This document shows, one piece after another, positions 14,036 through 57,089 of a stretch of DNA of 64,000 nt (the first letter of the stretch is position 1; every line of letters begins with the position of its first letter). A program made the translations under genes and the position numbers. Under the pieces are notes generated by a model. That model saw only the letters and a program-made list of their open reading frames with translations. It made no database searches and was not told the DNA's origin. The stretch comes from an uncultured Microthrixaceae bacterium (GTDB taxonomy: Bacteria > Actinomycetota > Acidimicrobiia > Acidimicrobiales > DATDAH01): contig CAWJSC010000017.1 of assembly GCA_963845425.1 (NCBI GenBank), positions 123,843-187,842 of the forward strand. Reading direction: 5' to 3'.

Positions 14036-15376
14036 ATGAACATTCGTCTACGAGCACTGATCGCGGTCGCCGCGGTCATCACGATGGTTGCGGTCGGCCT
14101 GACGACGGGCGGCGGATCCGATGCGGGCGCGACGTCCGGTGACCTACAACCGCCGGAGGGATGCATCGACGTCAGTCCGGAGACCGGCGAGGTCGTCTAC
14201 AGCTGCACGATCCGAGGCCGGGCTTCTGCGCCTGCACCTCGGAACCTCCGACTACTTCCGGTTCGAGCCGGTGGGCCCCAGGACCGATCAACCAGGCGAT
14301 CAGCACCTCCGGTTGCCGGGCGACCCTGGCCACGGCGAACCGACTGGTGACCCTCACCCCCGGTCCGTCCGGAGCGACGCTCGGGCAGCGACGGGACAGC
14401 CTCGGGACCCAGTTCAACGAGGGGAACGGCGAACCGTGCGCCCAGGTCAACAACACGGGTACGAACGGTCAGAGCCTGGTCCTCTCGCTCGGCTCCGGCA
14501 TCGGCGTCGACGGCGCGCTCGTGGACTGGGCCGAGATCGATTTCGAACGCAAGTACGACGGTGTCGTCCGAGCCCAGTTCTTCGCGGGCGGCCCGCAGGG
14601 AACGTCGGTCGGCGAGCTGCTCCTCGGCTGCTCCGCCACCCTCAGCGACTGCGGGCCGGACTCCGGCGACGGTGACAACTTCCGGCTCGACACCCAGAAC
14701 CCGCCCGGCGGCCAGCCCTCGCCGGAGCCGTTCGACACGATCGTCCTCAGCCTCGACGCCTCGGGCCCGTCCAACGGGGCGTTCTCCCTCGAGGGCGGGG
14801 CCGACGGCACCGCACCGGGACCGGTCGGCTCGACCCTGTCGGTGAACCCCAACGACTCGCTCTTCCACGTGATCACCCGCGAGACGATCACCTACGACGG
14901 GACGCTCGACTGCACCGACACCGCCACCGTCGACGTGCCGAGCGACCCGGAGAGCCCGGCCACGAGCTCCACGCGTCACCCGTATGGAGAACAAGGACGG
15001 CGGCTGCGCGCTCGTTCCCTACACCCTCGAGGCCGGGTACGACGGCGACGGCGAGCAGACGGTGGACTTCATCGTGGACCTGACCGGCCAGGCGACCGCC
15101 GAATTCGAGTGGCGCGTGGAGTGGGACCCCGAGCCCGCCACCTACCCGCTCACCAAGACGACCTCGATCGACTTCGGTGACGGCCCCAACCCGTTGCAGT
15201 GGTGCGGCGGCACCTATGACCCCGACGGGGCCACGCCCGACGACCGGATGGCGGCCGTCGTCCCCATCAGCGGGTTGAGCGGGTGCCTCGCCTACCAGCA
15301 GCAGGTCCTGACCGGCGGCCAGGTCCAGGTGACCGAGGTGCTCCTGCTCAGCGACGACCCACGCGTGTCCCGCTAG
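14036..15376 (+). pseudogene. Secreted protein of unknown function, reading frame broken at least 3 times
   Basis: GGAAGGGA SD followed by ATG 14036. Signal peptide MNIRLRALIAVAAVITMVAVGL. High-GC3 coding signal hops frames at about 14205-14215, 14285-14295 and 14955-14983. The pieces fall in track ORFs 14000.., 14121.., 14161.. and 14984... The joined product has Cys pairs and no family I recognise. Confidence 0.55.
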
Positions 15377-15379
15377 GCG

Positions 15380-55232: not shown

Positions 55233-55255
55233 GGCCCGGGACCGTATCCGGGTGG

Positions 55256-57089
55256 TCAGGCGGTGCGATCGGCCTTGAGCTGCTTGCGGGCGCGGGCCCG
55301 GGTGGTGCTGTCCAGGTCGACCTTGCGCAGGCGCAGGCTCAGGGGGGTCACCTCGACGGCTTCGTCGGCGGCGATGAACTCCAGCGCGTGCTCCAGGGAC
55401 AGGACCCGGGGTGGGACCAGCTTGACCGTGTTGTCCGAGCCGGCCGCCCGGACGTTGGTCTGCTTCTTCTCCCGGACGATGTTGATGTCCATGTCCTCGG
55501 AGCGGCTGTTCTCGCCCACGATCATGCCCTCGTACACGGGCTCGGTCGGGGCCACGAACAGGCTGGCCCGCTCCTGGATGCTCTCGATGGCATAGGGCGT
55601 GGCCTTGCCGGAACGGTCCGACACGATGCTGCCGGTGACCCGGTTGCGCAGCTCACCCTTCCACGGCTCGTAGCGCTCGAAGACGTGGTGGGCCAAGCCG
55701 GTGCCGCGGGTCTCGGTCAGGAACGCGGTGCGGAACCCGATCAGGCCCCGGGCCGGGATCAGGTAGTCCAGGCGGACCCAGCCGGTGCCGTGGTTGACCA
55801 TCTCGGTCATGTCCCCCCGGCGGGCACCCATCATCTGGGTGACGGCGCCGACGTGCTCCTCGGGGATGTCCACCGTCAGGCGCTCGACGGGCTCGTGCAG
55901 GACGCCGTCGACCTCCTTGGTCACCACCTCGGGCTTGCCCACGGTGAGCTCGAAGCCCTCCCGGCGCATGATCTCCACCAGTACGGCCAGGGCCAGCTCG
56001 CCGCGGCCCTGGACCTCCCAGGTGTCGGGGCGCTCGGTGTCCAGCACCCGCAGCGAGACGTTGCCGATCAGCTCGGCGTCCAGGCGGTTCTTGAGCAGCC
56101 GGGCCGTGACCTTGCTGCCCTCCGTGCCCGCGAGCGGTGAGGTGTTGGTGCCGATGGTGACCGAGAGGCTGGGCTCGTCCACGGTGAGGACGGGCAGCGG
56201 GTCGGGATGGCCCGGGTCACAGAGGGTCTCGCCGATGGTGACCTCGGGCAGGCCGGAGAGGGCGATGAGCTCGCCCGGTCCGGCCTCCTCGACCGGGACC
56301 CGGTCGAGCTGCTCGGTCACGTAGAGCTCGGCGATCTTGGCGTTGACCACGGTGCCGTCCCGGCGGCACCAGGCCAGGTTCTGACCCTTGCGCATGGTGC
56401 CGCGGTGGATGCGGCAGAGGGCCAGGCGACCGACGTAGGGGTCGGCGTCGAGGTTGGTGACGTGGGCCTGCAGCGGACCCTCGGCGTCGGTCGCCGGCGG
56501 CGGGATGCTGTCGAGCAGGACCTCGAACAGCGGCTTCAGGTCGACGCCGGGCGTGTCCATGTCCAGCGAGGCCCAACCGTCTCGGGCCGAGGCGTAGACG
56601 ACGGGGAACTCCAGCTGGTCGTCATGGGCGTCGAGGTCGATGAGCAGGTCGAGGACCTCGTCGGCGATCTCGTGGGTCCGGGCGTCGGGCCGGTCGACCT
56701 TGTTGACCACCAGGACCATCGGCAGGTTCAGGGCCAGCGCCTTGCGCAGGACGAACCGGGTCTGGGGGAGGGGACCCTCGGCGGCGTCGACCAGCAGCAC
56801 CACGCCGTCGACCATGGCCAGGGCCCGCTCGACCTCACCGCCGAAGTCGGCGTGGCCGGGGGTGTCCACGATGTTGAGCTTGGTCCCGCCCCACTCGACC
56901 GAGGTGTTCTTGGCGAGGATGGTGATGCCCTTCTCGCGCTCGAGGTCGGTCGAGTCCATGACCCGGTCGTCGACCTGCTCGTTGGCCCGGAAAGCGCCCG
57001 TCTGCCAGAGCAGTGGCGTCGACCAGGGTGGTCTTGCCGTGGTCGACGTGGGCGATGATGGCGGCATTGCGAAGCGGGCGCGCGGACAT
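55256..57089 (-). CDS. typA: Translational GTPase TypA/BipA (single apparent 1-nt frameshift at about 57014)
   Basis: N-terminus MSARPLRNAAIIAHVDHGKTTLVDA (frame of track ORF 56835..57098). It continues as LLWQTGAFRANEQVDDRVMDSTDLEREKGITILAKNT...DTPGHADFGGEVER (track ORF 55256..57067). Collinear with E. coli BipA across the junction if one nucleotide is removed. Confidence 0.85.

Follow-up and report, generated by a model that had tools for sequence, protein, structure and literature searches.

Classic errors of Nanopore sequencing are homopolymer deletions, and Mycobacterium leprae is known for the genuine accumulation of pseudogenes during reductive genome evolution. Both served as comparisons for a stretch of 64,000 nucleotides (hereafter the window) of contig CAWJSC010000017.1 from an uncultured Microthrixaceae bacterium, in which frameshifts break nine genes. 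These encode a secreted protein, a class III cyclase, a DUF4012 protein, AMMECR1, the AmmeMemoRadiSam radical SAM protein, WS/DGAT-2, an FAD oxidoreductase, a GrdB-like selenoprotein and TypA. Residual insertions and deletions (indels) that truncate proteins have been documented in Nanopore-only assemblies, for which Medaka polishing has been used to reduce them (PMC12313526), and the consensus quality of R10.4 data has been reported to depend on approximately 40-fold coverage (PMC9262707).

The lesions in the window resembled the indel errors of long-read metagenome-assembled genomes (MAGs; Nanopore or PacBio reads processed with Flye and Medaka) in being almost purely single-base indels that left substitutions unaffected, in their patchy distribution and in being private to each assembly. 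Housekeeping genes were among those hit, and the contigs concerned were long and had Flye-style names. In contrast to the classic homopolymer-length error, the lesions were mostly insertions, lay beside third codon positions and were rarely found in homopolymer runs. As in M. leprae, several frameshifts occurred per gene and intact and broken genes were interspersed, but the window lacked the nonsense codons, larger deletions and relaxed selection of such pseudogenes, the lesions were absent from strains 99-100% identical to it, and a conserved translational GTPase had been hit independently in two assemblies. Judged on assembled sequence, the frameshifts are very probably single-base indel errors that remained in the consensus of a Flye-style long-read metagenome assembly and not mutations of the organism, because near-identical independent assemblies lack them and carry different ones of their own and because the substitution pattern of the affected genes is that of genes under selection.

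The guanine plus cytosine (GC) content was 70-75% throughout the window (72% for the source contig of 443,233 bp), which gave open reading frames (ORFs) in all six frames, and coding frames were therefore parsed with a six-frame Viterbi model of the GC pattern by codon position (GC3). Frame switches away from the stop and start boundaries of genes were restricted to the nine affected genes, and uninterrupted genes filled 1-13.8 kb, 15.6-26.4 kb and 36-57 kb. Lesion sites were placed in window coordinates by alignment to intact relatives, including codon-aware alignments. The initial annotation had listed at least 23 clustered frameshifts in nine genes; these were real but undercounted, as alignment gave a total of approximately 45-55 single-base indels, most of them 1-nt insertions, and the earlier counts per gene stand as lower bounds. 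Twenty-nine insertions and approximately 11 deletions were placed confidently, insertions thus making up about three quarters. The error patches were at 14.2-15.6 kb, 26.4-29.7 kb, 31.39 kb and 32.9-35.45 kb, with one isolated site in typA. The description of the lesions as almost purely small indels was also borne out: neither nonsense codons nor larger or multi-base deletions were found in the affected genes, and the sole in-frame stop was the conserved TGA of the GrdB-like gene.

Proteins from the same 90%-identity clusters as those of the window were located on ENA contigs of 970,332, 855,505 and 26,442 bp, and the contigs used as references had the Flye-style names contig_411, contig_23110 and contig_30116. 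Going by their names and sizes, the contigs probably stem from Flye-type long-read metagenome assemblies that were submitted together. A comparison with closely related genomes, run on these sister assemblies (Table 1), found affected genes to be intact there. Uninterrupted copies in contig_411 encoded the secreted protein (444 aa), the cyclase (1260 aa), AMMECR1 (205 aa), the radical SAM protein (401 aa) and TypA (610 aa), and the GrdB-like gene was intact in contig_30116 as 144 aa, a selenocysteine (U) and 234 aa. For seven of the nine genes, the lesions of the window were absent from the same-species copies in contig_411 and contig_30116, which were 98-100% identical. For the FAD oxidoreductase and WS/DGAT-2, no copy from the same species was found, and the closest DNA was approximately 91% identical. 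A scan of GTDB species representatives with Memo returned no same-species genome, the best match being an Ilumatobacteraceae MAG at 64% identity, and supplied radical SAM and AMMECR1 homologues.

The stretches that had been called clean were clean in this comparison as well. Over the 17.8 kb from 44852 to 62695, the window and contig_411 were separated by 14 substitutions and a single gap, the typA insertion, and no window-private frameshift occurred in 37175-54288. The typA gene matched contig_411 at 1833 of 1833 bases apart from the one inserted base, at which the translation runs as MSARPLRNAAIIAHVDHGKTTLVDA in one frame and continues as LLWQTGAFR... in the next. The ratio of indels to substitutions relative to contig_411 was 1:0 for typA and 1:2 for AMMECR1, and these ratios, together with 14 substitutions and no other indel in the clean 17.8 kb, are wrong for gene decay.

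The sister assemblies had private frameshifts of their own. In contig_23110 the typA gene was split into ORFs of 155 and 434 aa by an insertion at the equivalent of window position 56674, further insertions were present at the equivalents of 45697, 60301 and 63322, and an MFS gene and a P-type ATPase gene were also broken. In contig_411 the DUF4012 gene carried private insertions at the equivalents of 24756, 25585 and 26675, a small LPXTG gene was interrupted at 26916, and an acyl-CoA dehydrogenase was reduced from 416 to 337 aa by an insertion at 41557. These private insertions were outside homopolymers, and all seven of the coding ones abutted a third codon position. With typA broken in two of the three assemblies of the species, at a different site in each, a real mutation is not credible.

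The remaining single-gene comparisons followed the same pattern. The secreted-protein gene had +1 shifts at 14209, 14273 and 14974 and two compensated +1/-1 pairs (14337/14343 and 14421/14428), and was 92.7% identical to contig_411 between flanks of approximately 99%. In the cyclase gene, otherwise 98.97% identical to an intact relative, the only indel was a 1-nt deletion at 15567/8 that reframed the last 64 or so codons (approximately 195 nt); the absent base was carried by three relatives, namely contig_411 (L086), a contig whose k141 name indicates MEGAHIT (L090) and a JGI contig (L171). When ORFs of relatives were used as tblastn queries, AMMECR1 matches stopped short at 27310 and the radical SAM gene was split over three frames. 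The latter was 98.8% identical to an intact relative, and homology to contig_411 ceased at its end (29723).

For the FAD oxidoreductase, a translation was spliced from eleven frame segments and matched more than 120 intact proteins of approximately 571 aa, with identity of up to 89% over 97% of the length. Single-base changes in the gene comprised 13 insertions and four deletions, and one further lesion adjoined the start codon, giving approximately 18 in total, some 11-12 of which were uncompensated. At aligned positions it was approximately 91% and 89% identical to two of these intact genes (L083 and L082), from which it differed by the series of single-base indels. Substitutions relative to L083 were distributed 25/12/96 over codon positions 1, 2 and 3, and the two intact homologues differed from each other by 33/20/141. 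Across columns that do not vary among 60 homologues, the indel-corrected protein had one private change, and the homologues themselves had a mean of 0.78 and a maximum of 5. By these comparisons the indel-free FAD oxidoreductase is a normal member of its family that has kept the third-position pattern of substitution. Its homologues P0001 and P0002 were on contigs that were not syntenic with the window.

The GrdB-like gene, approximately 97% identical to an intact relative, contained nine indels between 35446 and 34744 and approximately 11 more in its final 150 nt. GrdB- and PrdB-type reductase subunits share with it the recoding of UGA as selenocysteine and a UxxC motif that closes the GRDB-homologous part, and the Pfam GRDB match (PF07355) ended at the U position. 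The initial annotation had exempted the UxxC TGA from the lesions, and this TGA was conserved in contig_30116 and in all 80 homologous metagenome loci in the context LTPV-U-PLC, so it is regarded as a selenocysteine codon. Recoding of this type in GrdB/PrdB-type subunits explains the TGA only and not the frameshifts of the window. The 76 nt around the UGA folded no better than shuffled sequence (z = -0.14) when a selenocysteine insertion sequence (SECIS) element was sought, and there was no Rfam match in the window. When metagenomes were searched with the GrdB-like protein, 80 full-length homologues were recovered, none of them more than 89% identical and none on a same-species contig.

The densest patch (32.9-35.45 kb) fell in a strain-variable segment. 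The region 29724-37174 was missing from contig_411, which has TrkA/RyR, TIR and VWA genes in its place and was 98-99.9% identical to the window on either side. The contig_30116 alignment (L085) shared 34.6-37.06 kb of the segment only and continued into an alpha-L-fucosidase gene in place of the FAD oxidoreductase. An FAD oxidoreductase was adjacent in none of the 80 GrdB-like loci. The junctions of the segment could be natural or chimeric. Its hydrolase and YceI genes were intact; exact-protein look-ups with YceI and the alpha/beta hydrolase gave no match, probably owing to wrongly chosen start codons.

The confidently placed insertions had a distinct signature. The inserted base was G or C in 23 of the 29 and unlike both neighbours in 22, and all but two abutted codon position 3 (27 of 29, against an expectation of 21.1 under a null model matched for flanking dinucleotide; P = 0.005). 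Typical examples were CT[G]C, GC[A]C, TA[T]C, ACC[G] and GCG[C] (inserted base in brackets), in each of which the extra base would be a synonymous choice for the third codon position next to it. The window has ACGC at 14974, compared with ACG in one relative and AGC in another, and the base missing at 15567 is at or beside a base that varies among relatives (G, C or A; the third position of a Glu codon, followed by the first position of the next codon). Short runs of C or G contained a few of the deletions (35446, 33484). The initial annotation had placed several lesions in G/C homopolymers: those at 35446 and 34831 did lie in C and G runs, whereas the AMMECR1 lesion at 27316 was beside, and outside, the G run at 27307-27311. 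Overall the role of homopolymers was minor, as the siting in runs expected of classic Nanopore error was observed for two of the 29 insertions when runs of four or more were considered. Methylation-motif error was ruled out as a cause; the sites had no common motif and the errors were patchy, not genome-wide.

This signature suggests mis-consensus at strain polymorphisms, in which both alleles of a single nucleotide polymorphism (SNP) are emitted or a base is dropped, since the inserted base is mostly unlike its neighbours and adjoins the third position and since the worst patch is in the strain-variable segment. On the consensus-error interpretation, whatever its trigger, the consensus step left some 45-55 single-base indels in a few patches and the underlying genes are functional. 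At strain SNPs the consensus would write the two alleles as a two-base doublet or omit the base, and a strain-specific segment covered by very few reads may be a further source of errors. For the densest patch, very sparse read support is just as plausible a trigger. The strain-polymorphism trigger is proposed tentatively because SNP density relative to contig_30116 did not separate the indel-rich from the indel-free part of 34.7-37.1 kb, and this counts against the interpretation given here. Several other points weigh against it also. The evidence consists of assembled sequences and not of reads, and contig names were the only basis for deducing the platform and pipeline. For the FAD oxidoreductase and WS/DGAT-2, for which no same-species reference was found and whose nearest DNA is as distant as stated above, the argument draws on the selection signature and on analogy with the other genes. 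The dominance of non-homopolymer insertions is atypical for Nanopore data and is explained only in part.

A purely technical origin in random long-read indel noise at very low read support, with no role for strain polymorphism, is possible but on balance doubtful. It would fit the position of the densest patch in a segment missing from contig_411 and partly shared with contig_30116, and the GrdB-like gene, with approximately 11 indels in its last 150 nt, comes near the error level of raw reads there; the dependence of R10.4 consensus quality on approximately 40-fold coverage (PMC9262707) is in line with it as well. Such noise is expected to have no preference for codon phase, yet 27 of 29 insertions abutted position 3, and it is expected to introduce substitution errors, yet private changes were not in excess in the corrected FAD oxidoreductase. 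Within this segment, the hydrolase and YceI genes were undamaged, and the typA error was in a stretch otherwise identical to the sister assembly. Alternatively, the insertions themselves could be real, as bursts of non-slippage single-base additions, preferentially beside third codon positions, by a mutational process of this lineage that struck particular loci, the strain-specific island and typA among them, too recently for further damage to have built up, but this is considered very improbable.

Very recent pseudogenes in the nine genes, including a decaying strain-specific island, are very unlikely. The clustering of lesions in particular genes beside intact neighbours, the probable dispensability of most affected genes and the failure to find an intact same-species FAD oxidoreductase are compatible with decay. 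Against this, approximately 45-55 indels had accumulated without a nonsense codon or multi-base deletion, typA had one indel and no substitution and AMMECR1 one indel and two substitutions while the clean 17.8 kb had 14 substitutions and no other indel, the FAD oxidoreductase retained its third-position pattern and invariant residues, typA was broken at different sites in two of three assemblies, and every sister assembly contained private frameshifts. Functional recoding or phase variation, by programmed ribosomal frameshifting or in slippage-prone tracts, has a probability close to nil. The indels at 35446 and 34831 are in C5/C6 and G5/G6 runs as such mechanisms might use, but homologues and same-species copies are read in a single frame, 22 of the 29 insertions have no identical neighbouring base and the sites are not repeats, and up to 18 shifts in one gene is beyond any known decoding mechanism. 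Phase-variable and programmed frameshifts are marked by a repeat or slippery site conserved in relatives, and none was seen here. Of the two causes that had been put forward initially, recent gene-specific decay or slippage-prone tracts is thus not supported, given the lack of nonsense codons, of larger deletions and of a non-synonymous excess and the rarity of insertions in runs. Consensus error where a long-read or metagenome assembly has low coverage or mixed strains is favoured by the intact near-identical copies, the private frameshifts of the sister assemblies and the retained signature of purifying selection, and the typA lesion, taken at the outset as a pointer to such error, has been strengthened in that role by the full match of the gene to contig_411.

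Table 1. Features of the window and alignments of same-species contigs to it (window coordinates)
Feature or alignment	Position	Strand	Remarks
Secreted-protein gene, family not assigned	14036..15376	+	444 aa, intact in contig_411
Class III cyclase/AAA/TPR gene	15373..19161	-	1262 aa in window, 1260 aa in five relatives
DUF4012 gene	24365..26690	+	+1 insertion (G) at 26431
AMMECR1 (AmmeMemoRadiSam protein A)	27216..27835	-	+1 at 27316; otherwise 99.68% to intact 205-aa copy
Memo (AmmeMemoRadiSam protein B)	27812..28621	-	Intact, 0 indels, 99.63% vs contig_411
AmmeMemoRadiSam radical SAM gene	28616..29723	-	+1 at 28843, ~29335, 29680, possibly 29708
Strain-variable segment	29724..37174		7.4 kb; holds densest error patch (32.9-35.45 kb)
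WS/DGAT-2	30808..32219	+	Single -1 shift at ~31386-31392; two frames by tblastn
FAD/NAD(P) oxidoreductase (phytoene-dehydrogenase-like)	32880..34592	-	~571 aa in relatives; C-terminal end provisional
GrdB-like selenoprotein gene	34609..35750	-	378-379 codons including selenocysteine codon in relatives
In-frame TGA, motif LTPV-U-PLC (UxxC)	35316..35318	-	Selenocysteine codon, not lesion
typA/bipA	55256..57089	-	Inserted base at 57014 (plus-strand T), 25 codons into gene
L086, ERZ25039524 contig_411	11300-29723		98.1% identity
L084, ERZ25039524 contig_411	37175-54288		99.3% identity
L087, ERZ25039524 contig_411	44852-64000		99.9% identity
L088, ERZ25039478 contig_23110	44854-64000		99.2% identity
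L085, ERZ25039597 contig_30116	34598-46763		95-99% identity

Several further features of the affected genes were observed. The secreted-protein gene was hypervariable, with 7.3% nucleotide divergence from contig_411 compared with 0.1-1% in its flanks, and codon differences comprised 52 non-synonymous and 31 synonymous changes. This divergence may reflect diversifying selection on a putative surface protein; no Pfam domain was found in the protein encoded by 14036-15376. The AmmeMemoRadiSam operon was complete in 27216-29723 on the minus strand, with the radical SAM, Memo and AMMECR1 genes in the same order as in Acidimicrobiia relatives. More than 460 relatives of the GrdB-like protein were found, many in contigs whose record names say marine metagenome, and by homology they are taken to form a widespread family of short GrdB-like selenoproteins. 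Gene callers split the GrdB-like gene into a 144-aa ORF and a second ORF of approximately 230 aa (the called ORF has 228 aa, and reading from the codon that follows the TGA gives 234 aa).

Three paralogues of WS/DGAT (wax ester synthase/diacylglycerol acyltransferase) were present in the 64 kb, at 21306-22685 (+), 30808-32219 (+) and 50436-51848 (-), and a fatty-acid desaturase and an acyl-CoA dehydrogenase were also encoded in the window. This suggests an emphasis on neutral-lipid metabolism. Between the DUF4012 and AMMECR1 genes, a small ORF at approximately 26782-27072 (+) encoded a signal peptide followed by LPRTG, a hydrophobic tail and RHR; it resembles a sortase substrate and was intact in the window and frameshifted in contig_411. 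At 40683, in a gene for a small secreted protein (40625-41158, -), an in-frame 6-nt length difference from contig_411 occurred in a poly-proline tract (14 Pro), which looks like natural repeat-length variation rather than error.

The problem is likely to affect the whole dataset, as the sister assemblies show it too. A weaker claim, and a more likely one than real insertions, is that the consensus tools used for long reads may convert strain SNPs into two-base doublets in a systematic way, which would give a recognisable, codon-phase-biased frameshift signature in high-GC MAGs. If the signature seen here is general, non-homopolymer insertions adjacent to third positions could help to detect and correct such errors in high-GC long-read assemblies. 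For the organism itself, the nine genes, among them typA, those of the AmmeMemoRadiSam trio, the selenoprotein gene and the FAD oxidoreductase gene, should be annotated as intact and not as pseudogenes, and it would be wrong to infer gene loss, lower completeness or decay for this genome.

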